Part shown: one piece after another, positions 17,083-54,191 of the stretch
How the letters are laid out: each line of letters opens with the position of its first letter
Numbering within the stretch: position 1 is the stretch's first letter
Origin: Lentisphaeria bacterium
GTDB taxonomy: Bacteria > Verrucomicrobiota > Lentisphaeria > Victivallales > UBA1829
Length of the DNA: 64,000 nucleotides
Reading direction: 5' to 3'
NCBI GenBank assembly: GCA_003526375.1
Contig: DPDG01000052.1
Span: 4,139 to 68,138, forward strand
Notes under the pieces: generated by a model
The model's input: only the letters and a program-made list of their open reading frames with translations
Database searches by the model: none
Told to the model about the DNA's origin: nothing
Position numbers and translations under genes: made by a program

Positions 17083-17083
17083 A

Positions 17084-17245
17084 TTACTTTTTGTGCCTGA
17101 TTGTCCGGGGAAAGGTGGAATCGCGGAGGATCAGGCGGGTCGGGATTTTCAGAATTGTTTTATGGGAAGGCGCATCGTTGATTTCCGTGAGAAGCTGTCT
17201 GATCGCAACGGAAATCATGTCGCGTCGCTTCTTCATCTTGAATAA
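17084..17245 (-). pseudogene. C-terminal fragment of a LacI-family regulator
   Basis: The minus-strand translation RRDMISVAIRQLLTEINDAPSHKTILKIPTRLILRDSTFP* looks like a LacI-family C-terminus (..L.P.LI.R.ST). No upstream remainder exists; AT-rich DNA starts at ~17246. Confidence 0.4.
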
Positions 17246-17316
17246 GTGATATTCAAAATATTTTCCAATTTTTATTGTTTTTGATTTGCAAAATGGAAAA
17301 ACAGGAATATTATTTA

Positions 17317-17334
17317 TAATAAAGCGTTTTATTA
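17317..17334. promoter_or_regulatory. candidate LacI-family operator
   Basis: 18-bp near-palindrome TAATAAAGCGTTTTATTA (one mismatch), ending 12 nt upstream of the LacI start at 17347. Confidence 0.45.
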
Positions 17335-17346
17335 AAAGAGGAAGAT

Positions 17347-18480
17347 ATGAGGACATCCCGTACAGCGAGATTGATTGATGTTGCAAAGGCTGCCGGCGTA
17401 TCGTTAGGTGCGGCATCTACCGTAATTAATGGCGGCAAGACGTCCATTCAGGTAGGAGAAGAAAGCAGACGGCGTATTCTGGAGGCTGCAAGACAGCTTA
17501 AATACCGTCCAAACTTGACAGCACGGGCTCTTTCCGGAAAGTCAACCCGGCTGATTGGAATCGTCAATGCGGTTATTTCGCAATATTCCAGCGCCGTTTT
17601 TGTAAATCATATTCTTTCTGTTGCAGCAAATTATGACTATCATACTTTACTGGATATTGTTCACGTCGGTAATCATGTTATATTTGACAAGGGAGTAGAA
17701 GGGCTTGAGAATCTGCTGGCACGGCATCCGGATGGCCTGATTTTCATGGGAATACCGGATCAGGAGGTAATGAAGCATACTACCGTTCCGAATGTCACAA
17801 TCGGCTTCAAAGATAATCGGCATTCTGATTTTTCCTTTGATTTGGAGGCTGGCGGATATATGGCGGGACTTCATCTTGCAAAACACGGACGGAGGCGGGT
17901 TCTTTTTATCTGCACCAGTCAGGACGCCAATAAGGAAAAACTGTTTGGTTTGCGGCGTGCCTGGCAGGAGTCCGGTTTTGCCCCGGATGCCGTTGTTGTG
18001 ATAGAGAGAGTGTTGAATGATATTTATGGCGTTGAAGATCTTATCCTTCGGGAGATTGAGAATGGCGCCGATGCCGCGTTTTGTTCCAACGACTTTCTTG
18101 CGGCACGTCTTCTTGCATTCCTGCATGACAGGAAAATTCATGTGCCGCAAGAGATTGCTGTTATCGGTTTTGACGGTGATATTTTCAGCAGTATTATTAC
18201 CCCCTCGCTTACAACTGTTGTACAGCCTTTTCAGGAATGTGCGGAGCGTGCGGTAAAATTGTTAATTGAACGAATTGAAGGAAAGGAGAGTGGAAGGAAA
18301 AGAAGGAAGAATATTAAATTATTGCCCGGTTTCTTTACCGGACAAAGCTGCGGTTGCGAGACAGGAGTATTGCCAATTGCAGGCTGGAGTCGGGATATGC
18401 TCTTTTTAGAGGAGTTTTTCGGGAAACGTATCAGTAAATATGAGGATTTCATTTTGCAGCACCAGATGAAAAAGGAGTGA
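17347..18480 (+). CDS. LacI-family transcriptional regulator
   Basis: [26 protein letters not shown] plus a sugar-binding core; 377 aa. Confidence 0.85.
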
Positions 18481-18484
18481 TGAT

Positions 18485-19192
18485 ATGAGACGGATTCATC
18501 TTAGATATTTTACATTGATTGAATTGTTAATCGTTATCTCAATTCTTGCAATTCTTGCGGCAATGCTGCTGCCGGCATTATCAAAGGCGCGGGCAAAGGC
18601 AAGACAGGTTGCCTGTCAGGGAAATCTGCGGCAGATCGGGATGGTAAACCATCTCTATACACTTTCCTATGACGGTTTCATTCCGGGATATCTGGAGGAT
18701 GTCTACCGTGCATCGGGGACCAATGCCAGAAGCTGGATTGATATGCTTTATGATTATCAGCTTCAAAATGAAAAAATATTTGAATGCAACGGAATGGAGA
18801 GCGTTATTCCCGGTGGTGTCAAGGGGATCAATTATGGTTTCAGGCGCGATGAAGGCGGAACCGGTAAACGTTTGGGGGACTATGGAGTCAATATTACCAA
18901 TGTAACCGGAAATGTCACGAAAGATAATAAACTTGTCCTGTACTATTACCGAAGGATTGACAGACTTCGGAATTCCTCCGGAACACTGATGGCATCAGAA
19001 GCAAGAAGCAGTGCCAACAGTACCTATCACATAAGCCGTGCCAAAGATAAGAAAACAGTCAATAATATTCGTATCGTGCATGGTAGATATATCAATCTCC
19101 TTTTCTTTGATGCACATGTCGTTCCTCGTTTATATAGTGATCTCCGCGTCCGGGCACAACAGGAAACAGCGATGTGGGAAGGACAATGGTAA
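18485..19192 (+). CDS. prepilin-type N-terminal cleavage/methylation domain protein (DUF1559-like pseudopilin)
   Basis: [52 protein letters not shown]. Starts 4 nt after the LacI stop. Confidence 0.8.
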
Positions 19193-22119
19193 TGATGATG
19201 CAGATATTGCCGACGCTCTTCTTGGGTTCGCTTATATTGGGAACATCTGAGATTTCATGGAATCGAGTGGAAGATTCTCGAAGATGCCGGCCCTGGCGAA
19301 CTCAACGTATTTTGCCGCGTCCGCTCTTTTTTGCTGAAATTCAAAACTATCGGTTAGTCGAGAATTATCTGCATTACTGGATTGACCGTCCTCTTTACCA
19401 TGACAGCTCTCTGCGCGGCAAAAACAGTTATATGGAGAGTATGCGGCGCAATATTGCCATTGCCCGTGAGTATGGATTGGATGGCTTTACGATTTTAGGC
19501 AATGCTCCATCACTCAGGAATGATTGGCGTTTGCTGTTGAGTGTGCTTGCTGAAGAAAAAGGGATTGGCTTTGCCGGAATGGCAGGGGCTGTTTATTCTC
19601 GTGTTCCCGATGCTCAATGGTATGAGAATTTTCTTGACAATTATCGAATCGCTGCTTCTTCTCCTCATTCCCTGCGAATTGGAGGGAAGATTGTGGTTTG
19701 GGCTTATCATGCTCAGTTTTTCCCTGTTGAACTGTTTTCCAGACTCAGACTGCTGATTGAAAAAGAAAATCTGCCTGAACCATTTCTCTTTACTATTGTT
19801 AATGATCTTGAGATGCAGAAAAAGTTTCAGGAAAAAGGTTTTCTTTCCAAAGACGAGGAAGCGCAGTTCCGTGCTTTATTGGAGGAGCAATTGTACAATG
19901 CTGACGGGATTATGGTTTATCCCGCAGGTAAAAATCGTCCTGAGCATGGAGAATATGCCGCCCGTCCTGTTCAGGATCCTTTTTACCGACGTTATACCCT
20001 GCCGTTTCTGTTGGAGTTACTGGCAGAAGAACGATTTTCAAATAAGGCTGTAGGTGCTTATGTGTATAAGGGGTATGTGAACCATCTTTCTGGAAATATT
20101 GCAGGTGAATACGGTTCTTCCGCATTTCGTCTGGCAATGGAGGAACTCATGCTTCTGAATCCGGATATCATCACTTTTTTTGAGTGGAATGAGGCAAATG
20201 AGAATACCCATTACCAACCGACGGTAGCCAATGGGAATGCCATGAAGAGAATTGTAAGAAACTATATGAGTCTGTTGCGCGGAGAGCCGTCGCTTCCGGA
20301 AAAAAATGACAATACAGCGATACCGAACCTGATTGTATCCAGCCGCATGGTATTGCGTCTTGGCGAAAATATTGAATATGAATTTTTGAATCTGCCCGAT
20401 ACGGAGAAAACGAGCTTATATTCGGTCGAACTGAGATTGAAGGATGTTTCCGGTGCGGTATTGAAAAGATTTCCAGCGGAACACTTTAACCGTGCTGAAT
20501 TCAAGTCCGTTACCATTTCCGTTCCAAGTCTGCAATTTTCCGTTGAAAGTATTCTGATACCGGAGATTACGATTACCGGGCCGGATGGGAAGATGTGTCA
20601 TTATGAACTTCGGCATATGCGGATTGATCCGAGCGTGTGTTCCAATTATAAGGAAATTATGCAACCTGTGCGGGAACAGCTGGCATGTGATTTCCGGTAT
20701 TTCTGGACGGGGGATACCCTGAAAGCCGAAGTGAATTCAAAGATTCCACTCAGGTCTTTTGAACTATTGCTGAACGAAGATGAAGTCGCTGCCGCCGGGG
20801 ATGTCCAAGCCAATGGTGATTTATCCAGGACCGTCACCATACGCGGGCATTTTGCCGCATTTGAACCCGTTATGAAACAGATAAGTTTTGAAATTTCCGG
20901 TTCTCCTGAGTGGTATTTCTGTCGTGACCACTATCGCAATGCGCCGGATCAACTCAGACAATTTGAAAACAAAAAAGTATTGATCAACTATAGAATCCCT
21001 TTTTACTATCCGGAATATTTTTTTATTCGGTATCTGCCGGCAAAAAATGCAAGATTGAAAATTGCTGTTGATGGTTTTCTGCCATTGGAATTCAAATGTT
21101 CGGATTTGGAAAAGAAGGGTAAATTTGCTCAGGCTTTCCCCGGAGCGATCCGGCTGGATCTTGAAATCGTGCGGAACCTTGCGGATATTCCAACGCCATT
21201 GAATCGTAGAAAGGCACAACTGCAATATCGCCTTGCACACGGAATATCAGATTACCCGCAGGCTGCGGAACTGCGCGCTGTCAGCATGGATGGAAAAATC
21301 AGGCGTATGTTTATTGATATCATGAATCCGTCCTGTAAAAGCACCTTGAAGCTGCCGGTTCTTGATGTGAATGCGAAGAGAGCTGTGAATGTCGATATTC
21401 CGCAGCGGATGCAGCGCGATATCGTTTATCGTTTCTCTCCTGAACATGGCGCATTGCTTTATGCGCCGCGCTATCCTGAGTTCACAGGTGAGCTTGGGGG
21501 TGGTTTTCAGTATCTGGAACCGTTCAACCGTCCACGTCCCGAGTTATTGAAACATCTTGGGGGTGCTTCTGCCGCTCCGCAGTGGTTTTACGAAGATAAG
21601 CGCTGGGGACTTCATTTTGATGGAAATGCCAATTATGTGAATTTTCCTCGTGAGGCATTGCCTTATGGAGCCTTTACACTGCAATTTGAAATTCGCCCGT
21701 CTGAAGCGGGGCGCAGTGAGGTGCTGTTTCGCAATTTCAGCCATCATGACGGATCATTGAACCTGTTCCGGCATAATGATAAACTGATGATGATTTTTAC
21801 CCGCCGCACGGCTCAAAATAAAAGTGAGCTGATCAGGATCACTACCTCGTTGGAACTTCCCGCCGGCAGTTGGTCGAATGTCAGCGTTGCAATGGACTTG
21901 GAAAATATTACATTTACTGTCAATGGGAAAAGTGAGAAAAAAGCGTTTCCATACCAGGGATATTTTTTTAAGCCGTCCATTTTCGGCGGTCATGTTTATC
22001 CGGCATTTGCAATGCCGTCTTCAAATACAAAATTTTTCAAAGGGGATTTACGCTTTATACGGATTCTTCATGGGATTGAAAATAAAAAACAGATATCAAA
22101 AAAGGAGACTTTGAAATGA
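19174..22119 (+). CDS. large exported protein: GH71/GH99-like N-terminal region plus C-terminal LamG/ConA-like lectin domain
   Basis: Hydrophobic N-terminus. [16 protein letters not shown] resembles the WNE..E block of GH71/GH99-type barrels. C-terminal [14 protein letters not shown]...[11 protein letters not shown] resembles Laminin_G_3. The start could instead be 19186. Confidence 0.5.
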
Positions 22120-23975
22120 AAAGATTTTTTTCCGTTCTCTTATTCTGCCTGGGGGCAGCAATTTCCGGTTCGGAGCTGCAACTGTCATCGCCTCGTGCCA
22201 TCAAAGTAGATGATCCGGAAGATCCTGTCCAGATATTTGCGGCGCAGGAGCTGCAGAGACATCTGAAAATGATTTCCGGTATTGAGCATCCGGTCGGAGA
22301 AACGGAGCCTGCCACCTTTGTGATTGGACGAAAAGCTCCGTCCGATATGGAAAGAATGAATACGGGTGAAGGACGTTATACGTTTGAGAACAATGTGCTT
22401 TACTTTTACGGGGAGGATTATTATGACAGGAAGCGTTCCCTTGACAAGATTCTGGCTGACCGCGACAATCGGACGGGCACTTTGAACAGTGTTTATACAT
22501 TCCTTGATCAAGAATGCGGGGTCCGTTGGACGGCGCCAGGCAATGATCGCATTGTATTTATCCCGCGGAACTCAGTTGTTCTGAAGGAAAAGAAAGTAAA
22601 TAAGTGGAGATTGCCTTTGGAGTTTGCCTTCGTGCGTCCTTACTTCTGGAATCCCAAGCTGATTGCCGGAAACAATAAGAGGGTTCCTGAAGAGCTCCGT
22701 TTTTCCTCCTCTGAAGTTTACCGGAAACGTTTGGAACATATTGTCTGGACACGCCGTATGAGGCTGGGGGCTAATGAAATCATCCGTTTCGGACATGCCT
22801 TTACAGATTACCAGGATCGTTTTCTGAAGACTCATCCGGAATATCTTGGAATGAATCAGGATGGTTCCCGCGGTCTTCCTGATCAACTTAAAACCCGTGT
22901 TAAACTTTGCGTTTCCAATGAGGCTGTCGTTGATCAGATTATTTCTGATTGGCAAGCGAACGGTGCAAAAAAGTATCTTAATGTATGTCCGAACGATGGA
23001 ACTCCCGGCTTTTGCAGATGCCCGCGGTGTCTCGCTCTTGACGAACGCAGGGAGAATGAAAGATTTCTTGATCATTTGACGGACCGTTACGTCAATTTCT
23101 GGAATCGAATTGCAGCCAAAGCCGTGAAGATTCGTCCGGATGTGACGCTGGTGACTTATGCATATAGCTATTATCGTTTTGCACCGCGTCGGGAAAAGAT
23201 TCAGTATCCGGAAAATATCTTGCTGGGGCTTGTCCCGATGCTGATGGAGGATAATCGCCGGATTATGGAGGAATGGCGGAAGGCTGGAGTCCGGCACTTT
23301 TTTCTGAGGCCAAACGATCTCTGCTATGAAGCTGTTTATTTCCGGGGATTTGAAAGAGGCATTTGGGAACAATTCTCCGCTGCAAGAGATATTGGACTCA
23401 ACGGCATGGATTTCGATGCCTGTATCGGCAATCCGGCTACAGAATTGGATTTTTATATCGCAGCACGGGCTATGGCAAAACCGCAGATGAGTTTTGAGGA
23501 AATTGAAAAAGAATATCTTTCCATCTATGGCGCCGCAGCGCCGGCAGTAAAAAAATTCTATGAACTTTACCGCAGGAACGGAGATAAAATGATGAGAAAA
23601 GTCTACCGGAAACTGAAGCAGGAGAAGCGTTATCTGCTGGATTCCGGGCAGATTCCGATCGTCATACAGGAGAAGATTAATTTTTATTACCCGGTTTCTC
23701 TGATGCGGGAGGCATCCGCACTGCTTGAAGAAGCTTTACAGTACGCCTCAGAACTCAATGAATCGGAACGCAGGCATCTTGCACGCCTGAAGTCCTTGAA
23801 TGATCACAGTATCATGACATTTGAACTGGTTGAAGCTTTGAACCGGAAAGCTGCCGACATTGAGGAGAAGCGGAATAAGCTTCTGAAATATAGAATTCAA
23901 CATAAAGATCTGGGGTTTTGCTGGCCTCTTCTGTTTACTCGTCCACGGGCTGAAGGCAATCTGAAAATCCGGTGA
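22116..23975 (+). CDS. DUF4838-like exported protein (glycan-active, GH20-related fold suspected)
   Basis: Signal peptide [18 protein letters not shown] and Cys cluster CPNDGTPGFCRCPRCLALD, as I recall for DUF4838. Start overlaps the upstream stop. Confidence 0.55.
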   Translation: MKRFFSVLLFCLGAAISGSELQLSSPRAIKVDDPEDPVQIFAAQELQRHLKMISGIEHPVGETEPATFVIGRKAPSDMERMNTGEGRYTFENNVLYFYGEDYYDRKRSLDKILADRDNRTGTLNSVYTFLDQECGVRWTAPGNDRIVFIPRNSVVLKEKKVNKWRLPLEFAFVRPYFWNPKLIAGNNKRVPEELRFSSSEVYRKRLEHIVWTRRMRLGANEIIRFGHAFTDYQDRFLKTHPEYLGMNQDGSRGLPDQLKTRVKLCVSNEAVVDQIISDWQANGAKKYLNVCPNDGTPGFCRCPRCLALDERRENERFLDHLTDRYVNFWNRIAAKAVKIRPDVTLVTYAYSYYRFAPRREKIQYPENILLGLVPMLMEDNRRIMEEWRKAGVRHFFLRPNDLCYEAVYFRGFERGIWEQFSAARDIGLNGMDFDACIGNPATELDFYIAARAMAKPQMSFEEIEKEYLSIYGAAAPAVKKFYELYRRNGDKMMRKVYRKLKQEKRYLLDSGQIPIVIQEKINFYYPVSLMREASALLEEALQYASELNESERRHLARLKSLNDHSIMTFELVEALNRKAADIEEKRNKLLKYRIQHKDLGFCWPLLFTRPRAEGNLKIR

Positions 23976-24242
23976 TGCCGATGCAGACAAGAATACGCTG
24001 AAACAGCCTCGGGGCATTCCTTTGATCTCTTTCAGAGCCCCCTGGCTGAGTTGTTCCTGATGTCGTGAGAGATGTATTTTCAGGAGGTGCCGGATCACCG
24101 TGGACTCCGTTTTACTGTCTTGCCGACAACCGTTCCCATGTCACATGGTGCAACCGGTATCACGAACTGGCAACCACATTGCATATACATTTGATTCCAA
24201 AGAGTTTTATCAGATGAAAAATATACTGACGGGGTGAATAAA

Positions 24243-24319
24243 TGGTGGGTATAACTGGACTCGAACCAGTGACCTTCACGATGTCAACGTGACGCTCTAA
24301 CCAACTGAGCTATACACCC
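24243..24319 (-). tRNA. tRNA-Val (anticodon GAC), CCA encoded
   Basis: The reverse complement GGGTGTATAGCTCAGTTGGTTAGAGCGTCACGTTGACATCGTGAAGGTCACTGGTTCGAGTCCAGTTATACCCACCA folds as a cloverleaf: 7-bp acceptor stem, GCTC/GAGC D stem, TCACG/CGTGA anticodon stem, loop TTGACAT, and a TTCGAGT T loop. Confidence 0.95.
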
Positions 24320-24606
24320 TTGTTTTGTTGATGCGTTTAATATAACAGCTGTCTTCGTTATTTCAAGCTGAAAAAATAAAAAAATGTTATTTTTATATTT
24401 GCCGGCGATGGAGATGCATGGCTTCCGAAAGTGTGGAAAGCAAGGTTTTGAAGGATAGAAAAGACTGGAAGACCAAAAATATGAGCACAAGTCGATTCTT
24501 TCCGGTTTACTGTATTTGTCTGACGGCTGTATTACTGTGATTTGACAATGTCCCGTTTCCGTCTTATATTGACTCATGACTCAGAAACGAGGGGAGGAAA
24601 CAACGG

Positions 24607-25305
24607 ATGATAGGTATCATTTCACTGCTTTTAATCATATATACTTTGCTTTTCATTACCAGAATTGCCGCCATTATTCTGGAATACACGGGACTGTCGC
24701 AGGAATCGGCGCGTTTTCAGGCCCGTTCCGCTGTAACCGGATGCGGTTTCACCACGTCGGAATCGGAGGAGATCATGAACAATGCGATTCGCCGGAAAGT
24801 GGTCGGGAATCTGATGCTGATCGGGAATGTCGGGCTGGTTGCGTCGCTTTCCTCCATGCTCATGAGTTTCATTCATGTGAATATGGACAACCTGCCTTAT
24901 GAAGTTGCAATCCGTGGGATTCTGCTGGGCGGCGGACTTCTGATTCTCTGGGGATTGTCAAAGAGCCGTTCGTTTGAACGGCTGGTGATCCGCATTTTTG
25001 AGATTGCCGTGCGAACTCCGATGGAACTCAGCACTTACCATTACGGTTCTCTCTGCCATCTTTCAGACGGTTTTCAGGTGAGTGAATTTCTCGTGGAGCA
25101 TGGAATGCATCTGGCGGGGAAAAGTGTCTCGGAATGTTCTTCATTGTTCGGGAATGTCAAACTGCTGGGTATTCAGCGTTCCCCCTCAGAGTATGTGGGA
25201 TATCCGGACGGCGCCGTTTTGATTGAGGAAAGTGATCTCCTGATTCTTTATGGAGCCAAAAATGACCTTAACCTGATGGAAAAGAAAGTGAAAATATCCG
25301 CTTGA
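24607..25305 (+). CDS. membrane protein with a C-terminal TrkA-C (RCK_C)-like domain
   Basis: N-terminal TM helices plus a C-terminal VSEFLVEHGMHLAGKSVSE..LLGIQRS..VLIEESDLLILYG pattern typical of TrkA-C. Confidence 0.6.
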   Translation: MIGIISLLLIIYTLLFITRIAAIILEYTGLSQESARFQARSAVTGCGFTTSESEEIMNNAIRRKVVGNLMLIGNVGLVASLSSMLMSFIHVNMDNLPYEVAIRGILLGGGLLILWGLSKSRSFERLVIRIFEIAVRTPMELSTYHYGSLCHLSDGFQVSEFLVEHGMHLAGKSVSECSSLFGNVKLLGIQRSPSEYVGYPDGAVLIEESDLLILYGAKNDLNLMEKKVKISA

Positions 25306-25454
25306 TTTTTTATGACATCTGTGTAAACGGAAAATGAAAATAATTTTCGTATTTTTTATATTCAGATTCTTGTATTCTGGAAAGATGGTGTTATTATAGC
25401 TTATGGAAGATGCCCGTTTTGCTTTGAAATTGCTGAAGGGAGAGTATTGAAATA

Positions 25455-27743
25455 ATGGTCGATACTGTTTATTATGCTCATACTTTGCCGGACAAAGGAC
25501 CGGAATCCTGGCAATATTTGAAAGATCATTTGTGTAATGTTGCAAAAATGGCGGCGCAGTTCGCTGCGTCTTTTCATGGAGAGAATTTCGCAAAAGCCGC
25601 AGGGTTTGCACATGATTTCGGTAAATTCAGCTCTGAATTTCAGGCGAGGCTGATGGATGCGGAGCTTGATATGAGTTCGCGTGACAAAGATCACTCTTCC
25701 GCCGGAGCGCAGATCCTGTATGAGAAATTCCTGATGGCAGGGCATTTATGCGCTTATGCCGTGGCGGGGCATCACAGCGGTTTGCTGGATCACTGTTCCA
25801 AAACCGGAAACGGCTGTATGGAGGCGCGGCTCAAAAAGAAATTGCCGCCGTGGAAAACAGCCGAGGCGGAACAAATCCTTGCCGGGATTGATTTGAATTT
25901 TGAACGCGATATTCCGCGAACTCTTTTTGCATCGTCTTCAAGGGAGTTTTCCCTGTCGCTTTTCTGCCGCATGATCTATTCTTGTCTTGTGGATGCGGAT
26001 TTTCTGGATACGGAGGCATTCGTCCTGCCGGAGCAGGCGGCGCAGCGCCCGAAATGGGATTCCGATATTCTTATAAGAATGAACAAACTGCTGGATGAGC
26101 ATCTGGACGGTTTCAAAGAAGAGAACCGGAAGAAAAGATTTAATGAACGTGAAATGAGAGTCCGCGAGTTGAGAAACGGAATTCTGGAGGATTGCCGGAA
26201 TGCCGCGGAGCATGAGCCCGGGCTTTTTACGCTGACTGTTCCGACGGGCGGCGGCAAGACGCTTTCCTCGCTCTCTTTTGCTTTGCGGCATGCCGTAAAA
26301 TATCGGAAAAAGCGGATTGTTTATGTGATTCCGTTCATCTCCATCATTGAACAGACCGCCGGACAGTTTCACGACATCTTCAAGACACTGGAACCGAACC
26401 CCGTATTGGAGGTTCACAGCAATATCCCGCTGGAAAATGAATCCGGCGGCGAGGTGGACGAACTTGCTGACGAAAGACGTATGAAGCGTCTTGCCGGCGA
26501 GAATTTCGATGCGCCGCTTGTTGTGACGACAGCCGTTCAGTTTTATGAATCCCTGATGGGGAACCGTTCTTCGCAATGCCGCAAGCTTCACAACCTGACC
26601 GATGCCGTAATTATTCTTGATGAAGTCCAGAAAATCCCGGTGGAATACATTCACGTGATCCTGACGCTTTTCAAGGAACTGAGTACAACTTACCGGGATA
26701 CGGTCGTAATGTGCACCGCGACTCAGCCTGCACTGGTCGAGAACCGTTATTTCCCGATCGGACTCAAAGAACCGCCTTATGAAATGATCCGTGACCCGCA
26801 AAAACTTTACGAAGCCCTGAAACGGGTCAGGATCGTGAACCTCGGAAAGCAGAGCGATGAAGAACTGCTGCTGCGCTTTGAGGCGGAGGAACAAATGTTG
26901 TGTATTGTCAATACGCGCGGTCATGCTTCAAAGCTGTTTCTCGGACTGAAGCGCAGGAAAGGGGATTATCATCTGAGCACGATGATGTGTGCGGTTCACC
27001 GTGCCGAAGTTCTGAAAGCGATTCGGGAGCGGGTGGCAGCAGGACTTCCCTGCCGCGTGATCAGCACGCAGTTGGTCGAGGCGGGAGTCGATATTGATTT
27101 TCCTGTTGTTTTCCGGTCGTCCGCCGGACTTGATTCCATTGCGCAGGCGGCGGGGCGCTGCAACCGGAACGGCGCTCTGGAAATTGGCAATGTCTATGTT
27201 TTTGAGTCGGAACATCGCCGTTCCGAGCGTTTTCAGCAGTCGGCGGCGAATATCGGCGCGGAGGTGCTGGATGTATACCGGGAAGACCCTCTGGGTTTGA
27301 ATGCCGTGGAGCGTTTCTTCGGTCTTTATTATAACCGGGAGAATGCAAAGTGGGACAGCCGGGATCTGTTGAAAAAGCAGTTTTGGGACTTTCCGCCGGC
27401 GATTGACGGAAAGCGCATAGAGCTTCAGTTCATGTTTGCGTCGGCGGCAGAAAAGTTCAAACTGATCGAACAGGACACGGTTGCCGTGATCGTGGAATAT
27501 GACAGTGACAGCATTGCTCTATGCGCGGAACTGCGAAAGAATCCGATCATGAATTATGGGATTCTCCATCGTTTGCAGCGTTATACGGTTCAACTGCACC
27601 GGCAGGTGTTTCTGCGTCATGCCGGACGGGAAATCGAGCTGCTTCACGGTGATATTCCCGTATTGATTTCAGCATGGACAAATTACAGTAAAGAGGTCGG
27701 ATTGACCTTTGATGATTGTGCAAGTGATCTTTTGGAAGCTTAA
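25455..27743 (+). CDS. cas3: CRISPR-associated helicase/nuclease Cas3 (type I-C)
   Basis: HD nuclease block (HDFGKFS), helicase motif I VPTGGGKT and motif II ILDEVQ. 762 aa; first gene of the cas operon. Confidence 0.9.
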   Translation: MVDTVYYAHTLPDKGPESWQYLKDHLCNVAKMAAQFAASFHGENFAKAAGFAHDFGKFSSEFQARLMDAELDMSSRDKDHSSAGAQILYEKFLMAGHLCAYAVAGHHSGLLDHCSKTGNGCMEARLKKKLPPWKTAEAEQILAGIDLNFERDIPRTLFASSSREFSLSLFCRMIYSCLVDADFLDTEAFVLPEQAAQRPKWDSDILIRMNKLLDEHLDGFKEENRKKRFNEREMRVRELRNGILEDCRNAAEHEPGLFTLTVPTGGGKTLSSLSFALRHAVKYRKKRIVYVIPFISIIEQTAGQFHDIFKTLEPNPVLEVHSNIPLENESGGEVDELADERRMKRLAGENFDAPLVVTTAVQFYESLMGNRSSQCRKLHNLTDAVIILDEVQKIPVEYIHVILTLFKELSTTYRDTVVMCTATQPALVENRYFPIGLKEPPYEMIRDPQKLYEALKRVRIVNLGKQSDEELLLRFEAEEQMLCIVNTRGHASKLFLGLKRRKGDYHLSTMMCAVHRAEVLKAIRERVAAGLPCRVISTQLVEAGVDIDFPVVFRSSAGLDSIAQAAGRCNRNGALEIGNVYVFESEHRRSERFQQSAANIGAEVLDVYREDPLGLNAVERFFGLYYNRENAKWDSRDLLKKQFWDFPPAIDGKRIELQFMFASAAEKFKLIEQDTVAVIVEYDSDSIALCAELRKNPIMNYGILHRLQRYTVQLHRQVFLRHAGREIELLHGDIPVLISAWTNYSKEVGLTFDDCASDLLEA

Positions 27744-27759
27744 CAGGGAGGTGAAAGGA

Positions 27760-28461
27760 ATGGGATACGGAATCAAACTGCTTGTATGGGGAGACCGGGC
27801 GTCGTTTAACCGCCCGGAAATGAAAGTGGAAAGAGTGACTTACGATGTCATGACTCCCAGTGCCGCGCGCGGGATTCTTGAAGCGATTTACTGGAAGCCG
27901 CAGATGAAGTGGGTCATCGACCGGATTCATGTGCTGAACCCGATCCGCTTCAGCAATATCCGCCGGAATGAACTGGGAGGAAAGATTGCGGTGAATATGA
28001 AGAATACTTCGGACGGCAGCGAGATGGGGGTTCTGATTGCGGAGAACCGTCAGCAGCGCGCCGGAATTATCCTGCTGAATGTGAAATATGGGATCGAAGC
28101 GCATATTGACGTCGTTGAAAAGGACCGGACCAACGAACATTCGGGAGCAAAGCATCTGGAGATGTTCAAACGCCGCGCCTCCAACGGCCAGTACTTCCAT
28201 CATCCCTATTTCGGGAATCGCGAGTTCCCGGTCAATTTTGAACTCGTGGAGGAATTTCCGAAACCGCACGAGGAGTTGAAAGATACTGACTTCGGTTATA
28301 TGCTGAATGATATGGTGTTCACACCGGATAAGAAGGGACGGGTTGTTGAAAGCAGTCAGGGGCGCCGTTTAAGTGCGACTCCGGTCTTTTTCCGCGCAAA
28401 AATGAAGAATGGCGTGATTGAGGTTCCTCCCGCTGTTGCGGAAATGGAGGCGGCGGTATGA
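27760..28461 (+). CDS. cas5: Cas5c (Cas5d) pre-crRNA endoribonuclease
   Basis: MGYGIKLLVWGDRASFNRPEMKVERVTYDVMTPSAARGILEAIYWKP is the hallmark Cas5d N-terminus. SD GGGAGG lies 8 nt upstream of ATG 27760. Confidence 0.9.
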   Translation: MGYGIKLLVWGDRASFNRPEMKVERVTYDVMTPSAARGILEAIYWKPQMKWVIDRIHVLNPIRFSNIRRNELGGKIAVNMKNTSDGSEMGVLIAENRQQRAGIILLNVKYGIEAHIDVVEKDRTNEHSGAKHLEMFKRRASNGQYFHHPYFGNREFPVNFELVEEFPKPHEELKDTDFGYMLNDMVFTPDKKGRVVESSQGRRLSATPVFFRAKMKNGVIEVPPAVAEMEAAV

Positions 28462-30233
28462 TACTTCAATCTCTGGATAAATTATATGACCGTATAAAAA
28501 ATGAATCGGAATATAATGTCTCCGAACCCGGTTACAGCCTTCAGAAAATCGCTTTTGCCGTGGTGCTCAATCCGGATGGATCTCTGTTCCAGATTGAGGA
28601 TATCCGCACTTTGAACGGGAAAAAGATGGAACCCCGTCAGCTTCAGGTGTTTGGTGCGACTAAACCCCCCGGAAATGGTTATAATCCTTCATTTCTTTGG
28701 GATAAAACCAGCTATATGCTTGGTTATGTACCGGAGTCTGCAACTGAAAAAGAACTGAAACGCGCGGCACCCTCTTTCAACTCTTTCCGGGAACTGCATC
28801 TTGCGTGTGAAAAAGAGGTCAATGATCCCGCTTTCTCGGCAGTCTGCCGTTTTTTGGAAAAGTGGGAGCCCCGGGAAGCGGCAAACTATCCGTTCCTGGC
28901 GGAAGCAACCGGATATGGTGTATTCAGGATCAAGGCGGAACCGGGATATGTGCATGAGCGTCCGGCAATTGTCGATTACTTCAAACGGACCCGGATGAAG
29001 ACTGCGGATCAGAATGCGGTGACGGGGCAGTGCCTGATCTCGGGGCAGACTGTCCCGATTGCGCGTCTGCAGGCATTGATCAAAGGAATCGGTGCGAAAC
29101 CTGCCGCGCTGGTCGGCTTTAACGACAAGGCTTATGAGTCATATGGCAAGGAGCAGGCGTTCAACGCTCCGGTCGGCGAGGAACAGGCGTTCCGTTATAC
29201 GGTCGCACTGAATGCTCTGACCGATGGCCCGATGAAGCGGCATCACTGCATTTCGATGGGAGACCTGAAAGTGATTTTCTGGGCGGGGAAAAAGAGTCTT
29301 GCCGAAGATTTTGTCGGCGGGTTTTTTGATACGCCCCGTGATTCCGGAGATGATTCGACCCGTAAGAAAATCGCTCTGCTTTTCGAGTGTTTCCGGGAGG
29401 GCAGGATTCCGGACCGGATGCCGGATTTTGACCCCGATGTGCCCTTTTATGTGCTGGGTTTGTCTGTCAATGTGACCCGTTGTGTGGTTCGCTTCTTCTA
29501 TACTTCGACAGTCGGGGTGCTGTTTGAACACTTCAGCCGTCACTTCCGCGATATGGCTTTGGAGCGCCGTTTCGAGACAGATTCTGAGTTCCCGACGGTC
29601 CGGCAGATTCTGGATCAGACCTGTGTTCTGAAAGGCAGTTTCCCTGACCGGGACAGCATTCCGAAGAATCTGCCCGGCACACTGTTTGACTCGATTCTGC
29701 GCGGGATTGATTACCCGGCGGGTGTTTACAACCGGATACTTCAACGTATCAAGCACGACCAGTATCAGGATTATATCAAGGTATCTTTTCTCAAGGCATT
29801 TTTAATACGTAACCATAATAAGGAGTATAGTATGAGTCTGGACAAAAACATTGCGGATCCGCCTTATCTCTGCGGGCGTCTGTTGGCGGTGCTTGACAAA
29901 ACGCAGCGCGACGCTCTCGGCGATACCAATACAAACATTCGTGAAAGTTTTTATGCCGCAGCTTCAAGCCGTCCCGGCGTCGTTTTCCCGCGGCTTCTCC
30001 GGCTTTACTCGCATCATCTCGGCAAACTTCCCACAGGCGCCAGGATTGCCCGCGATTCCCTGATGCAGGAGATCATCGATAAACTGGGACATACCTATCC
30101 TATGAATCTGAATCTTGTGGATCAGGGCACTTTTTCGATCGGTTATTATCAGCAGATGCAGGCTTTCTTCCAGAAAGCGGATAAAAAAGAGACCGGCTCC
30201 GAAGATGAGAATACAAAAGAAGAAACAAAGTAA
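28458..30233 (+). CDS. cas8c: Cas8c (Csd1) large subunit
   Basis: MILQSLDKLYDRI N-terminus, 591 aa, positioned between cas5 and cas7. Start overlaps the cas5 stop. Confidence 0.85.
   Translation: MILQSLDKLYDRIKNESEYNVSEPGYSLQKIAFAVVLNPDGSLFQIEDIRTLNGKKMEPRQLQVFGATKPPGNGYNPSFLWDKTSYMLGYVPESATEKELKRAAPSFNSFRELHLACEKEVNDPAFSAVCRFLEKWEPREAANYPFLAEATGYGVFRIKAEPGYVHERPAIVDYFKRTRMKTADQNAVTGQCLISGQTVPIARLQALIKGIGAKPAALVGFNDKAYESYGKEQAFNAPVGEEQAFRYTVALNALTDGPMKRHHCISMGDLKVIFWAGKKSLAEDFVGGFFDTPRDSGDDSTRKKIALLFECFREGRIPDRMPDFDPDVPFYVLGLSVNVTRCVVRFFYTSTVGVLFEHFSRHFRDMALERRFETDSEFPTVRQILDQTCVLKGSFPDRDSIPKNLPGTLFDSILRGIDYPAGVYNRILQRIKHDQYQDYIKVSFLKAFLIRNHNKEYSMSLDKNIADPPYLCGRLLAVLDKTQRDALGDTNTNIRESFYAAASSRPGVVFPRLLRLYSHHLGKLPTGARIARDSLMQEIIDKLGHTYPMNLNLVDQGTFSIGYYQQMQAFFQKADKKETGSEDENTKEETK
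29832..30233 (+). CDS. cas11: probable internally translated Cas11c small subunit (nested in the cas8c frame)
   Basis: In-frame ATG 29832 is preceded by a strong SD AAGGAG (29820-29825, 6-nt spacer) and yields 133 aa. Internal Cas11c translation is described for I-C systems. Confidence 0.5.
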   Translation: MSLDKNIADPPYLCGRLLAVLDKTQRDALGDTNTNIRESFYAAASSRPGVVFPRLLRLYSHHLGKLPTGARIARDSLMQEIIDKLGHTYPMNLNLVDQGTFSIGYYQQMQAFFQKADKKETGSEDENTKEETK

Positions 30234-30268
30234 TGTTCAGATAACACAAAAAAAGAGGAGATAGAGCC

Positions 30269-31126
30269 ATGACACGTTACGATTTCATGTTCGTTTTCGA
30301 TGCGAAGAATGCAAATCCGAATGGAGATCCCGATGCCGGGAACATGCCGAGAATTGATCCGGAAACAGGAAAAGGCGTAATTACGGATGTCTGCCTGAAA
30401 CGCAAGATCCGTAATTATGTTCAACTGAAATATCAGGATGGCGTGAATCACCGGATCTACTTCAAGGATGCCGTTGTTTTGAATAACCTGAACAAGGAAG
30501 CTTATGATGCCGCCGGATTGTCTCCTGCCAAAGAACTCCCGAAAGAGCTGAAAAAGGCGCGCGAACTGACGGCTTTCATGTGCCGGAATTTTTACGATAT
30601 CCGTACATTTGGCGCAGTCATGACAACGGATGTCAATTGCGGGCAGGTCCGTGGTCCGGTTCAGTTGTCTTTTGCGAATTCGCTGGACCCGATTTTCATT
30701 GCGGAACATGCCATTACCCGCAGTTCCGTCACGAATGAAAAGGACGTTGCCAAGGTGCGTACGATGGGGCGCAAATATACGATTCCCTATGGCCTGTATG
30801 TTGCTTATGGATTCGTGAATCCCCGTCTTGCGGCTGAGACCGGATTCAATGAGGACGATCTGGCTCTGCTGTGGGAGGCACTGGGAAAGGCATTCGAGTT
30901 TGACCAGTCTGCGGCGCGTCCTGCCGGCAGTATGGCAGCACGCAAACTGATTGTGTTCAAGCATGAAAGCGAACTCGGAAATGCGCCGTCCCATAAACTG
31001 TTCGAGCTTGTGAGAATTGCACGTGCGAACGACCCGAAAGCACCTCCGAGAGCTTTTGAAGATTATACGGTTGCAATCGACCGGGAACATTGTCCGAAAG
31101 GCGTGACGATCGAAGAACTGGTCTGA
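30269..31126 (+). CDS. cas7: Cas7c (Csd2) backbone subunit
   Basis: YDFMFVFDAKNANPNGDPDAGNMPRIDPETGKGVITDVCLKRKIRNY is the hallmark Csd2 N-terminus. Confidence 0.9.
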   Translation: MTRYDFMFVFDAKNANPNGDPDAGNMPRIDPETGKGVITDVCLKRKIRNYVQLKYQDGVNHRIYFKDAVVLNNLNKEAYDAAGLSPAKELPKELKKARELTAFMCRNFYDIRTFGAVMTTDVNCGQVRGPVQLSFANSLDPIFIAEHAITRSSVTNEKDVAKVRTMGRKYTIPYGLYVAYGFVNPRLAAETGFNEDDLALLWEALGKAFEFDQSAARPAGSMAARKLIVFKHESELGNAPSHKLFELVRIARANDPKAPPRAFEDYTVAIDREHCPKGVTIEELV

Positions 31127-31146
31127 TTGACTGTTTTTTGCTTCAT

Positions 31147-31187
31147 AAGGGGAAGGCGTGTCCGGGTGATGTGTCTTCCCTTTTTTT
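31147..31187 (+). terminator. intrinsic terminator-like hairpin between cas7 and cas4
   Basis: AAGGGGAAG (31147-55) pairs with CTTCCCTT (31175-82) across a 19-nt loop, running into a T7 tract (31181-87). Confidence 0.5.
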
Positions 31188-31207
31188 GCCTGTAGCAGAG
31201 GTGTGCC

Positions 31208-31825
31208 ATGTATTCTGAAGATGATTATATCATGATCTCCGCGCTTCAGCATTATCTGTTCTGTCCGCGACAGTGTGCTTTGATTCATCTGGATCAGTAT
31301 TGGAGTGAAAATCTGCTGACTGCTTCGGGGCGCGTCATGCATGAGCGCGTGGATACTCCCGGCACGCGTCATAACCCGGATTGCAGGATTGAATATTCCG
31401 TTCCGCTTTGCTGTCGCCGCCTCGGAATCAACGGGATTGCCGATCTGGTGGAGTACCATAAAAAGGGAAATGGAGTCTTTGAACCGTCCGTTGTAGAGTA
31501 TAAATTCGGGAGACCGAAGGAAAATCGTTGCGACGAGGTTCAGCTTTGCGCCCAGATGTTCTGCATGGAGGAGATGATGGACTGTTCCATTGCATCCGGG
31601 GTTATTTATTACGGCCGTACAAAGAAACGCCATGATGTGATCTTTGACCCGGAACTGCGTGCATTGACCGAACAGATCGTCGGTGCGGTTCATTCTCTGA
31701 TTTCTTCGGGGAAGATACCCCCGCCCGCTTACCGGAAACATGCCTGTGAAAGCTGTTCCCTGTTTGAATACTGCCGTCCGCTGGACTCCCTGCAGGTGGA
31801 ACAATATCTGGAGACGATCGAATGA
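31208..31825 (+). CDS. cas4: Cas4 (RecB-like exonuclease with an Fe-S cluster)
   Basis: N-terminal Cys (YLFCPRQCAL) and a C-terminal CESCSLFEYC cluster; 205 aa. Confidence 0.9.
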   Translation: MYSEDDYIMISALQHYLFCPRQCALIHLDQYWSENLLTASGRVMHERVDTPGTRHNPDCRIEYSVPLCCRRLGINGIADLVEYHKKGNGVFEPSVVEYKFGRPKENRCDEVQLCAQMFCMEEMMDCSIASGVIYYGRTKKRHDVIFDPELRALTEQIVGAVHSLISSGKIPPPAYRKHACESCSLFEYCRPLDSLQVEQYLETIE

Positions 31826-32856
31826 GAAAATTATTGAATACTCTGTTTGTCACCACGCAGGGAACGTATCTGCGGAAAGAGGGACAGGCGATTGCGGTTA
31901 ATCGGGACAAGAGAACGATCATGCGTCTGCCGCTGCATAATCTGAGCTCGATTGTCGTTTTCGGGCGGGTTCTGGTCTCTCCTTATCTGATGCATTTCTG
32001 TTCCGAAAATAATATCTTTATCGCGTTTCACCGGGAGGACGGACGTTTCCTCGCACGTGTGGATGGACCGGTTTCCGGTAACGTCCTGCTGCGTCGCGAA
32101 CAATTCCGTGTGGCTGATTCTCCTGTGCGTTCCGCCGCTGTGGCACGCAATATTCTGCTTGCGAAGCTGGCAAACAGCAAACAGGTGCTCCTGCGTTTCC
32201 TGCGCGATCATCCTTCGCCGGAAAATCAGGCGATTGAGGATGCCGCATCTTATTTGAAAGCGCTGATGCGGAAGCTTGCACACGGACACGAATGGGATCT
32301 TGAGCTGCTGCGAGGAATGGAGGGCAGTGCGGCGGAACGTTATTTTTCCGTTTTTGACGCTCTCATCAGGAATGAAGAAGCCGGATTCCGGTTTTCCGGG
32401 CGCAGCAGACGCCCTCCGATGGACCCTGTCAATGCGCTGTTGTCTTTTGCATATACTTTGCTCGGCAATGAAATGGAATCTGCTCTGGAGTCCGTTGGAC
32501 TGGACCCTGCGGTCGGTTTTCTGCATCGTGACCGCCCGGGGAGGGCGTCGCTGGCATTGGATCTGCTGGAGGAATTCCGGGCTTTTCTGGGGGATCGCCT
32601 GGTGCTCTCCTTATTGAATCTGAAGCAGTTGAAGCCCGGCGATTTTGAGCATGGCGGCAACGGCGCGGTCAAACTGAAGGATCATGGGCGCAAAACATTT
32701 CTGAGCGCTTATCAGGCTCGTAAGAAAGAGCTGATCGTTCATCCCTTTACGGGAGAAAAAGTTGAGATAGGCCTGTTGTTCTTCATTCAGGCGCGTCTGC
32801 TTGCCAAACACCTGCGTGGAGAATTGCCGCAGTATCCGCCGTTTGTCTGGAGGTGA
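31822..32856 (+). CDS. cas1: Cas1 integrase
   Basis: NALLSFAYTLL and DPAVGFLHRDRPGRASLALDLLEEFR blocks; 344 aa. Start overlaps the cas4 stop. Confidence 0.95.
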   Translation: MRKLLNTLFVTTQGTYLRKEGQAIAVNRDKRTIMRLPLHNLSSIVVFGRVLVSPYLMHFCSENNIFIAFHREDGRFLARVDGPVSGNVLLRREQFRVADSPVRSAAVARNILLAKLANSKQVLLRFLRDHPSPENQAIEDAASYLKALMRKLAHGHEWDLELLRGMEGSAAERYFSVFDALIRNEEAGFRFSGRSRRPPMDPVNALLSFAYTLLGNEMESALESVGLDPAVGFLHRDRPGRASLALDLLEEFRAFLGDRLVLSLLNLKQLKPGDFEHGGNGAVKLKDHGRKTFLSAYQARKKELIVHPFTGEKVEIGLLFFIQARLLAKHLRGELPQYPPFVWR

Positions 32857-32859
32857 ACG

Positions 32860-33153
32860 ATGTTGGTTATCGTGAGTTATGATGTTTCGACGCTGACGAA
32901 AGAGGGACGCAAACGTCTGCGTCATGTCGCCAAAATCTGCCAGAGTTACGGACAGCGAGTTCAGAATTCCGTTTTTGAGTGCGAACTGGACCATTCTCGG
33001 TGGGTGAAAGTGAAAGCGGAACTTCTGAATGAGATCAATTTGCAGGAGGACAGTTTGCGCATCTATTTGCTGGGGAATCACTGGCATGGTCATAAAGAGC
33101 ATTTCGGCACGAAAAAGACCTTTGATATTGCTGAGGATGTCTTGCTGATCTGA
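32860..33153 (+). CDS. cas2: Cas2
   Basis: MLVIVSYDVSTLTKEGRKRLRHVAKICQSYGQRVQNSVFEC; 97 aa. Confidence 0.9.
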   Translation: MLVIVSYDVSTLTKEGRKRLRHVAKICQSYGQRVQNSVFECELDHSRWVKVKAELLNEINLQEDSLRIYLLGNHWHGHKEHFGTKKTFDIAEDVLLI

Positions 33154-33273
33154 GAAACCGCGGGCTGTCTGGTGAAAAGATGAGTGTCCTTCCAGTCTTT
33201 CACTTATGGCTTGAAACTGACCTCCGGGCACGAACAACCGGCAAGCCTGGTCATGAAAGAAAGATTGAAAATG

Positions 33274-33300
33274 CACTGCCGCGCGGGTGACGCGGCAGTG
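33274..33300 (+). other. GC-rich perfect hairpin 120 nt downstream of cas2
   Basis: CACTGCCGCG / CGCGGCAGTG form a 10-bp stem with a 7-nt loop CGGGTGA. It is followed by TTGAGCAG and has no U-tract. Confidence 0.6.
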
Positions 33301-33482
33301 TTGAGCAGCCTCAAATCCTCGACAGGTGCAGGAGAATGTAATTGGCAGAAGTCAGTAGAGGGAGTAAACTGTGCTTCCGTCCAAAACATCTTTTATAGCC
33401 TGTCGTCCCCCCCGATCAATGGGTGAAGGAAGTTGAGGTTACGCATATTATACATTGAAAAAGCAGAATGTCAAGCATGTTT

Positions 33483-33498
33483 TGTGAATAAAAACACA
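33483..33498. promoter_or_regulatory. CRP/FNR-type palindrome, site 1
   Basis: TGTGA-ATAAAA-ACACA: one mismatch to TGTGA-N6-TCACA. Confidence 0.4.
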
Positions 33499-33523
33499 AT
33501 TTATTTTTGATATTTTATTTAAT

Positions 33524-33539
33524 TGTGAATAAAATCACA
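33524..33539. promoter_or_regulatory. CRP/FNR-type palindrome, site 2
   Basis: TGTGA-ATAAAA-TCACA: a perfect match to the TGTGA-N6-TCACA architecture, 41 nt from site 1. Confidence 0.45.
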
Positions 33540-33770
33540 GTTTAACTGCCGAAGAAATAAGATTTTTTGCATTGCCTTTGATGAAATGTTGTATTTGACA
33601 GGATTTTCAATATTGAATCTGCTGTCGGCTGTGCCGGTAATCCCGTTTGCCGGGTGAGATGTCGCAGGGCATACCGGAAACGCAAAATGGTTCGACCGGA
33701 CTTGCGGGGGAATATTCCATTGGTGAAGTTCCCTGTCCGCTGGGGGCGGAAACGGTTCCGTTATATAAGA

Positions 33771-33806
33771 AATGACCTTATTGCTGCAGATAGCCATAAG
33801 GTCATT
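33771..33806 (-). terminator. hairpin 20 nt downstream of the ferritin-like gene stop
   Basis: AATGACCTTAT / ATAAGGTCATT form an 11-bp stem with a 14-nt loop. On the minus strand it is followed by TTCTTATATAA. Confidence 0.45.
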
Positions 33807-33825
33807 CTCCAAGCGGAATTTTGCT

Positions 33826-34131
33826 TCAGTTCTTCTGCCTGGCAAGAAGTTCTTCCACTTCTCTGGCGCCGCTTTCATAGAATTTACATTCTTCGGGTTC
33901 CAGCTCACGAAGCAGCCGCAGGAATTCGCCGGCGTGGACACGTTCTTCATCGGCGATATCCAGCAGGACGGCTTTGGCTTTTTCGCAGTCGATGGAATCG
34001 ACAAGTTGCGTGTACAGTCCGACAGCCTCATATTCGGCAGCAATCATGAAACGGATTGCACGGATCAATTCGCTTTTTGTGAGCTTTGCCCCGGCTTTGG
34101 ACGATGGCAGTGATGAACAGAATTCAGGCAT
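33826..34131 (-). CDS. small ferritin-like/rubrerythrin-family protein (EncFtn-like)
   Basis: 101 aa. AAEYEAVGLY and DEERVHAGEF supply a Glu ... ExxH di-iron type pattern. Has its own promoter and terminator. Confidence 0.6.
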   Translation of the reverse strand: MPEFCSSLPSSKAGAKLTKSELIRAIRFMIAAEYEAVGLYTQLVDSIDCEKAKAVLLDIADEERVHAGEFLRLLRELEPEECKFYESGAREVEELLARQKN

Positions 34132-34227: not shown

Positions 34228-34388
34228 GCTGGAAAATGTGAAAACAGTCATATTTTATTTGAAATCAAAAGATTATGCTGATCTTTATGCGATGCTTTTT
34301 TCTTTGCCGCCGATTTGAAAAAAAAGATTGCGCGAGTAAATTAACAGCGTTATGGAAATTTGAAAAACTCAACAGGAAGGAAAACAAT

Positions 34389-53896: not shown

Positions 53897-54017
53897 TTTT
53901 TAAACTTACTCAACACGGTTTTACAAAATCAATAAGGTTATTTTCTATACCTAAATGCTTCTTGATAATTCCAAACGAAAAAATAGACCCAAGGTTACCA
54001 AATATTGTGATTTAAGA

Positions 54018-54046
54018 TTGAAAAAAACATCATCTGCGTGATATAT
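54018..54046 (+). promoter_or_regulatory. candidate promoter of the R-M-S gene
   Basis: TTGAAA-17 nt-ATATAT, about 50 nt upstream of the SD-preceded ATG at 54096. Confidence 0.3.
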
Positions 54047-54191
54047 TACCAACGATAAGGTGTAAAAGCTTGGCAATTGACATAGGAGCGTGATAATGAA
54101 CAACAGCAAATCGGTTGAACCAAACATCGCGGATCTGGCGAATGGTTGGTTGAAAGAATACAAGTAGGATTATAAACTTGAGCAGGAGTCT

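Follow-up and report, generated by a model that had tools for sequence, protein, structure and literature searches.

How does a complete set of type I-C cas genes obtain its guide RNAs when no CRISPR array stands beside it? The question is raised by an operon at 25455-33153 of a 64 kb stretch of Lentisphaeria bacterium DNA (GenBank assembly GCA_003526375.1, contig DPDG01000052.1, positions 4,139 to 68,138 of the forward strand). We call this stretch the window, and coordinates refer to it unless another contig is named. We consider it likely, with a probability of roughly 65%, that the operon, part of the chromosomal backbone of an uncultured human-gut species, works as an "isolated" type I-C cas locus and draws on a remote array.

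The operon itself is intact. Using NCBIfam models, each scoring above its curated cut-off, seven genes were called on the forward strand: cas3 (25455-27743; 762 amino acids (aa), HD nuclease and helicase; TIGR01596 at 88 bits and TIGR01587 at 108 bits), cas5c (27760-28461; 233 aa counted from the ATG, with an alternative TTG start at 27709; TIGR01876, 144 bits), which encodes the endonuclease subunit for precursor CRISPR RNA (pre-crRNA), cas8c/csd1 (28458-30233; 591 aa; TIGR01863, 429 bits), cas7/csd2 (30269-31126; 285 aa; TIGR02589, 364 bits), cas4 (31208-31825; 205 aa; TIGR00372, 133 bits), cas1c (31822-32856; 344 aa; TIGR03640, 493 bits against a cut-off of 385) and cas2 (32860-33153; 97 aa; TIGR01573, 66.7 bits). 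Subtype I-C models fit Cas5c, Cas8c/Csd1, Cas7/Csd2 and Cas1c, and generic models fit the Cas3 HD and helicase domains, Cas4 and Cas2. The I-C signature set Cas8c-Cas7-Cas5c is present, as is the I-C type adaptation module cas4-cas1-cas2 (TIGR00372, TIGR03640 and TIGR01573); no Cas6 or additional open reading frame (ORF) was found within the operon. From cas3 to cas2 the intergenic gaps are 16, -4, 35, 81, -4 and 3 nucleotides (nt), and no internal stop was found in the seven genes between 25455 and 33153. An initial annotation had described seven intact, tightly packed I-C genes including the adaptation module, and the above-cut-off matches, the lack of internal stops and gaps of at most 81 nt confirm that description. 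Cas3 carries the motifs GGGKT and DEVQ, the same as in array-bearing relatives. Since helicase motif II reads DEVQ rather than DExH in every array-bearing relative examined as well, this is the normal state of the clade. Cas5c aligns over its full length with the solved I-C Cas5c endonucleases 3KG4 and 8DEX and keeps the K-H pair in a KHLEMF motif. The catalytic role of this pair is known from the Cas5d literature.

No array was found near these genes by any of the searches applied. Across the 64 kb, Tandem Repeats Finder reported only short low-copy repeats, and a direct-repeat search with spacing of up to 120 nt gave two unrelated two-copy families and nothing array-like. Autocorrelation at lags of 50-85 nt (at least 20 of 28 matches) yielded one match, at 1317, far from the operon and as in shuffled sequence. 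When the window was scanned by Hamming distance with the I-C repeats of relatives, the best sites had 20-23 matches over 33-34 positions; they were scattered in coding sequence and none was near the operon. An nhmmer profile built from the leader-plus-first-repeat sequences of four relatives, and run with all filters off, did not match the window or the sister lineage described below (best E = 1.9, at an unrelated site), so that leader and array appear to be gone without a detectable remnant. Strings after cas2 that look by eye like a decayed handle, leader or repeat, namely ATGGCTTGAAAC (33206), GATTGAAAA (33263), AATCCCGTTT...GGAAACGCAAAA (33639-33688) and GTCCGCTGGGGGCGGAAAC (33735), were rejected as chance-level by shuffled local alignment and nhmmer. 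Such strings are not kept in the sister lineage, where GTCCGCTGGGGGCGGAAAC is deleted. The repeat finder, direct-repeat, autocorrelation, Hamming and nhmmer results all agree with the earlier statement that no array adjoins the operon at 33154-33830 or 24320-25454. The upstream interval is indeed array-free, but it is mostly gene, the coding sequence of a 232-aa TrkA_C protein at 24607-25305. The flanks were covered for 8-10 kb past each window end through other assemblies of the species (L167 and L164); they are densely genic and repeat-free, and no array was found in them. The array-free zone therefore runs from -8.1 kb to +71.6 kb of the window, at least 33 kb upstream of cas3 and at least 38 kb downstream of cas2. 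Isolated or distant cas clusters are defined by at least three cas genes and no array within 10 kb (PMC5294841) or 20 kb (PMC7145637), and the operon has both properties; the leader and array within 10-20 kb of the cas genes that mark a complete locus are absent.

This arrangement is not peculiar to one assembly. In every contig spanning the region (L001-L010, L020-L024, L150-L161 and L163), a gap of 603 or 672 nt separates cas2 from a rubrerythrin/ferritin-like gene (33826-34131, reverse strand; 101 aa; Pfam Rubrerythrin). In all strains this is the gene that comes first beyond the cas operon. About 30 independent assemblies from ENA, Logan and NCBI pass directly from cas2 to the rubrerythrin gene and agree base for base, which excludes an assembly artefact. 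Species contigs carry no array within 10 kb of the operon in any strain. The comparison of related strains suggested by the initial annotation thus returned the array-less layout in about 30 assemblies of the species and also in a sister lineage (L011), whose Cas1, at 95% aa identity, is the closest outside the species. The array-less arrangement is fixed across the species and common to the sister lineage. Two assemblies break in the gap after cas2: the L008 scaffold has an N-gap near 33247-33254 and the L009 contig ends at 33316, both within 40 nt of the terminator hairpin of the small-RNA gene considered below. An alternative junction near this hairpin was seen in no other assembly. The species is widespread. 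Its proteins match exactly those of NCBI metagenome-assembled genomes named "Lentisphaeria bacterium" or "Victivallales bacterium" (HCG25540-HCG25550, HCG49240-50, MBP3393076 and MEI3004695), and exact-sequence look-up places them also in hundreds of ENA and Logan assemblies. Collection blocks with the Cas1 allele of the window number 45, and those with the commonest allele, P0123, 472; contigs found by DNA pattern are labelled human gut.

The operon lies in the chromosomal backbone. Strain-to-strain homology starts exactly at 24239-24241, the 3' end of a tRNA-Val(GAC) gene on the reverse strand (24243-24319; ARAGORN and Rfam) that borders a strain-variable island to the left. The cargo of this island differs by strain and consists of serine-recombinase elements, glycoside hydrolases or, in the window, Laminin_G_3/DUF4838 genes; the tRNA-Val 3' end looks like an integration hotspot adjoining the cas locus. 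Because the cas operon stands on the conserved side of the 24239-24241 border, it is backbone and not island. An origin of the operon from the island or a mobile element was rejected, the variable segment stopping at 24240. The gene for the 232-aa membrane protein with C-terminal TrkA_C domain (24607-25305, forward strand; Pfam TrkA_C, 28.4 bits) also belongs to the backbone: its synteny with the cas operon extends to the sister lineage, against which its ratio of nonsynonymous to synonymous substitution rates (dN/dS) is 0.07, and it is not a known cas gene. The left island (17000-24240) has a GC content of about 45%, and large serine-recombinase elements with ORF6N genes are seen in L003, L151, L152 and L158.

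In the nearest array-bearing relatives the canonical site is occupied. Every relative examined with a Cas1 62-69% identical to that of the window (L017, 68%; L012, L016 and L019, 66% each; and L018, Victivallis sp. Marseille-Q1083, 62%) has a leader of about 180 nt and an array directly after cas2. The repeat is GTCGCCACCCCACGCGGGTGGCGTGGATTGAAAC in L012 (about 143 copies in the 10 kb read), GTCGCCGCCCCCACGGGCGGCGTGGATTGAAAC in L016, GTCGCGGCCCCCACGGGCCGCGTGGATTGAAAC in L019 and CACCCAGTTCTCGCCTGGGTGTGAATTGAAAC in L018. Since the window lineage and its sister share the array-less state and the relatives bear arrays, the parsimonious reading of these sequences is that leader and array were lost from the canonical site before the two lineages split. 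Array loss had been among the options named by the initial annotation. As a loss from the canonical site it is supported by the leaders and arrays of the relatives and the lack of a remnant here; as a loss of function it is not supported, given genes that are intact in nearly all strains and have dN/dS of 0.03-0.12. The leaders of L012 (11450-11480), L016 (7975-8005) and L017 (7450-7480) share a motif, CGTTTCGCGCAATACGRAACGTAA, about 40 nt before the first repeat, and a hairpin, GCGCGAAC...TTCGCGC, stands directly after cas2 in the same three leaders; Cas1-Cas2 of this clade may use them to recognize the leader. Array length varies among relatives with identical Cas1. L015 (7930-7962) has a leader and one repeat and L016 (8041-8404) at least six, while L013 (7472-7565) has two and L012 (11514-21000) about 143. 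This is suggestive of ongoing array erosion in the family Victivallaceae, and only suggestive because short-read contigs could have collapsed arrays.

The cas genes have remained under constraint. Between the window and the sister lineage, dN/dS by the Nei-Gojobori method (dS 0.25-0.54 per site) was 0.083 for cas3, 0.029 for cas5c, 0.091 for cas8c, 0.055 for cas7, 0.115 for cas4, 0.087 for cas1 and 0.033 for cas2, values comparable to that of the housekeeping neighbor uxuA (0.042). Such values in all seven genes between two array-less lineages indicate that the system is maintained by selection. Within the species the cas genes are intact except in three contigs. Two of these have only 1.5-3x coverage, which makes assembly error likely, and a 1-nt frameshift interrupts cas8c in the third, L004. 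No other cas gene is as polymorphic within the species as cas8c, which has a synonymous diversity about 10 times that of cas3 or cas1 and aa changes clustered at residues 65-109, 205-227 and 374-408. Many strains also have a 1-codon deletion in cas8c, and the overall pattern is mosaic and recombination-like. From the sequences, this mosaic fits what recombination and diversifying pressure on the large subunit that reads the protospacer-adjacent motif would produce, and it is consistent with an arms race involving the interference complex.

Cas1, Cas2 and Cas4 have an established role in inserting spacers at the leader-proximal repeat, and Cas5c in cleaving repeats. Given these roles and the selection on the cas genes, an array elsewhere in the genome is the most economical inference. 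The options of the initial annotation are partly borne out: besides loss from the canonical site, a distant array is favored, and an array-independent or trans-supplied crRNA arrangement is less probable. Cas5c would still process pre-crRNA from one or more such arrays, Cas1-Cas2-Cas4 would still insert spacers at them, and Cascade and Cas3 would use the remote crRNAs in trans. The remote array or arrays probably carry a GTCGC...GTGGATTGAAAC-type repeat, as in the relatives. For type I cas loci, the share with no CRISPR inside a distance of 10 kb is about 12%, and remote arrays have been shown to serve some of them, such as the I-F loci of Zymomonas (PMC5294841).

Several points weigh against a remote array. 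The layout is that of a minority, as 88% of cas clusters lie within 20 kb of an array (PMC7145637), and no remote array was found in the approximately 80 kb of this genome that were read. When a species-representative genome collection was scanned with a broad pattern covering the repeats of the four nearest relatives, GTCGCNNNCCN{4,6}GGNNNGCGTGGATTGAAAC, the at least 120 matches listed included arrays of many phyla and none of this species. The repeat loci recovered from this collection and from IMG/VR have no DNA in common with the species beyond distant cas homology. The cognate repeat of the species is itself only predicted, from relatives at 62-69% Cas1 identity, and purifying selection shows that there is a function but not which function. 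The same pattern found 76 viral contigs in IMG/VR (L170-L245), none linkable to this host; about half of them have one isolated repeat in place of an array.

A rival reading is a true orphan, a system with no CRISPR array at all. Its I-C genes would persist because of some non-canonical role, or would receive crRNA in trans from arrays or mini-arrays on mobile elements that are gained and lost. We regard this as unlikely. In its favor are the lack of an array in about 80 kb, in any strain and in the sister lineage, the lack of a match from this species among the at least 120 genome-collection matches listed, the strain-variable integration hotspot that adjoins the locus at the tRNA-Val 3' end, and the many viral contigs with I-C-type repeats, often in single copy. 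However, cas1, cas2 and cas4 have dN/dS of 0.03-0.12 and their established role in spacer insertion needs a resident array, the catalytic KH dyad of Cas5c is kept, no recovered viral or genomic array contig is related to this species, and the absence of an array rests on a very small sampled part of the genome (about 80 kb). The viral contigs were rejected as trans-suppliers, none of the 76 being linkable to the host. It seems doubtful, then, that a widespread human-gut species keeps a full I-C system without a resident array, armed by transient arrays or mini-arrays of mobile elements or retained for a non-immune function. If it does, one possible place of entry for guides would be the strain-variable island at the tRNA-Val gene next to the locus. 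It is very improbable that the operon is a decaying remnant, with the array lost and the cas genes heading to pseudogenization. Leader and array are wholly gone, arrays seem to have collapsed in relatives (one repeat in L015 against at least six in L016, two in L013 against about 143 in L012), and three contigs have frameshifts in cas8c or cas4. Yet two of these three are the low-coverage contigs, and the array-less state is found in two lineages about 0.3-0.5 apart in dS while every cas gene has a dN/dS of at most 0.12 and no stops, by which decay is largely refuted.

We give hardly any credence to the idea that an array was missed or collapsed in assembly, or that the element after cas2 is a degenerate mini-array or guide RNA of the CreA/CreR kind. 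It could draw on two strings that resemble the 3' end of an I-C repeat, GATTGAAAA (33263-33271) and ATGGCTTGAAAC (33206-33217), on a hairpin that matches 15 of 17 nt of part of a relative's repeat, and on the two assemblies that break here, L009 at 33316 and L008 near 33247. However, local alignment scores are within the range of shuffled sequence, a handle-like match of 10 of 12 occurs four times on the forward strand alone, and the handle-like strings are kept neither in the sister lineage nor in L162, a contig with a second copy of the element. On the opposite strand, the element runs from a promoter to a terminator and is found also without any cas gene, and about 30 assemblies agree base for base. 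CreTA/CreR are reportedly degenerate mini-arrays beside cas operons. A CreTA/CreR-like mini-array was rejected here, as the nhmmer profile, Hamming scans and local alignment detected no degenerate repeats near the cas genes above chance level. A functional isolated locus served by a remote array thus remains our preferred explanation.

What follows cas2 is, to judge from its sequence, not CRISPR-related DNA; it holds an independent candidate small-RNA gene. A fast-evolving spacer (33154-33261) occupies the place where relatives have the leader; it has 41-59% identity to the sister lineage and no leader or repeat homology. Beyond it, on the reverse strand and convergent with cas2, lies a candidate small RNA of about 177 nt (33264-33440) with a CU-rich apical loop, UUUACUCCCUCU. 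It is preceded by a predicted sigma-70 promoter (33447-33474, reverse strand; TTGACA-16-TATAAT, 12 of 12 consensus positions; kept in the sister lineage and in L162 as TTGACA / TATTAT) and ends in an intrinsic terminator hairpin (33274-33300, reverse strand) with an 11-pair stem containing 8 GC pairs, followed by CATTTTCAAT and identical in sequence in the sister lineage and L162. The sequence TGTGA-N6-TCACA occurs twice upstream of the promoter, as boxes at 33483-33498 and 33524-33539 with a spacing of 41 nt, and their positions are kept in L162. The two lengths of the cas2-rubrerythrin gap, 603 and 672 nt, reflect a 70-nt indel at 33538-33607, just upstream of these boxes and present or absent according to strain, whose deletion junction re-forms the distal box.

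The block at about 33264-33545 is 97% identical to the sister lineage (8 differences in 272 nt), whereas the neighboring genes are about 90% and the ends of the spacer 41-67% identical. The fold of the predicted transcript has a z-score of -4.98 against shuffled sequences. L162 (ERZ779737) carries at 3900-4180 a 79%-identical copy of the whole unit, including both boxes, the -35 and -10 elements, the body and the identical terminator; upstream of this copy are amidase, ThiD and TatD genes, and there is no cas2 close by. RNAalifold on the three sequences kept 51 pairs, three of them by compensatory changes, and the loop UUUACUCCCUCU, also given as ACUCCCUCU, is invariant in all three except for one flanking base. 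No Rfam 15 family matched 33264-33440 (best E of at least 0.24 and bits far below gathering, in E-value mode); the only window match at the Rfam gathering score is tRNA-Val. A protein-coding reading of the block was rejected, as its ORFs of 61, 80 and 92 aa have no Pfam match and the substitution pattern is non-coding; in the 61-aa ORF that overlaps the small RNA, all differences from the sister lineage are nonsynonymous. The hairpin was also dismissed as a dispersed repeat, since the window and every locus fetched contain it once and IMG/VR gave 0 matches. A scan of metagenome contigs with the hairpin 27-mer found four contigs, three of which are this locus and the fourth L162. The initial annotation had hinted that the hairpin at 33274-33308 might be repeat-related. 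The promoter-to-terminator layout and the copy in the cas-free L162 identify it instead as the intrinsic terminator of a conserved, independent candidate small RNA on the reverse strand. By sequence, the unit has what marks a bacterial trans-acting small-RNA gene: a promoter, a terminator, conservation above neutral and non-coding substitutions.

Other features were noted around this unit. A third TGTGA-N6-TCACA-like site with one mismatch, TGTGAAAACAGTCATA, lies at 34237-34252 in the divergent rubrerythrin/uxuA promoter region, and three of the four such sites in the window fall within 800 nt. A poly-C tract inside the small RNA (33407-33413) shows a C7/C8 length polymorphism. Farther along the window, a low-GC (38-40%) island at 52982-57239 contains an ORF6N protein and a 1015-aa fused N6_Mtase/Methylase_S restriction-modification-like gene. 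At the same site L165 has a 675-aa HSDR_N_2/N6_Mtase/Eco57I protein and a 491-aa S-like protein, and L166 has short ORFs. The segment appears to be a variable defense islet between an anti-sigma gene and rpsT.

The locus provides a clean natural example of an old loss of leader and array, shared by two lineages at a dS of about 0.4, that has become fixed over hundreds of metagenome observations while all cas genes are still tightly constrained. The species is therefore well suited to asking whether remote arrays allow efficient adaptation and interference and, should there be no array, which other purpose keeps a complete type I-C system in place. The candidate small RNA of these gut Lentisphaeria, unannotated, strongly conserved and equipped with regulator boxes, is a concrete target for metatranscriptomics.

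For this small RNA there is a parallel with RoxS/RsaE of Firmicutes, which are Rex-controlled riboregulators with C-rich loops. They too are stand-alone RNAs, about 100-200 nt long, that have a strong promoter preceded by TTGTGAA..TCACAA-type boxes, an intrinsic terminator and an exposed loop rich in C and U, through which they could base-pair with ribosome-binding sites. Unlike them, the RNA described here belongs to another phylum, and neither in sequence nor by covariance model does it resemble an Rfam family, RsaE among them. We take the TGTGA-N6-TCACA boxes, by consensus, to be candidate sites for a redox or catabolite regulator of the Rex or CRP/FNR type and infer by analogy that the RNA may be a riboregulator under such control whose CU-rich loop acts on ribosome-binding sites.

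As in CreTA/CreR, a conserved small-RNA gene stands directly beside a type I cas operon. Unlike CreTA/CreR, this gene has no psi-repeats, lies on the opposite strand between a sigma-70 promoter and a terminator of its own, and occurs also in a cas-free context. Canonical I-C (Dvulg) systems, such as those of Desulfovibrio vulgaris, Bacillus halodurans and the Victivallaceae L012, L016 and L018, have the same seven genes in the same order without cas6, and the Cas5c of this operon is closely similar to solved Cas5c endonucleases. The canonical relatives differ in having a leader of about 180 nt and an array with the repeat GTCGCC.CCC..GGG.GGCGTGGATTGAAAC after cas2, both of which are missing here. 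Another likeness is to isolated loci with remote arrays. For the I-F loci of Zymomonas mobilis (PMC5294841), remote arrays with a shared repeat are known, whereas none has been located for this operon; in both, a complete cas locus with cas1-cas2 is conserved across strains and the surrounding 10-20 kb hold no array. About one in eight type I loci is of the isolated kind, a recognized minority, and the arrangement described here is therefore not new in itself.

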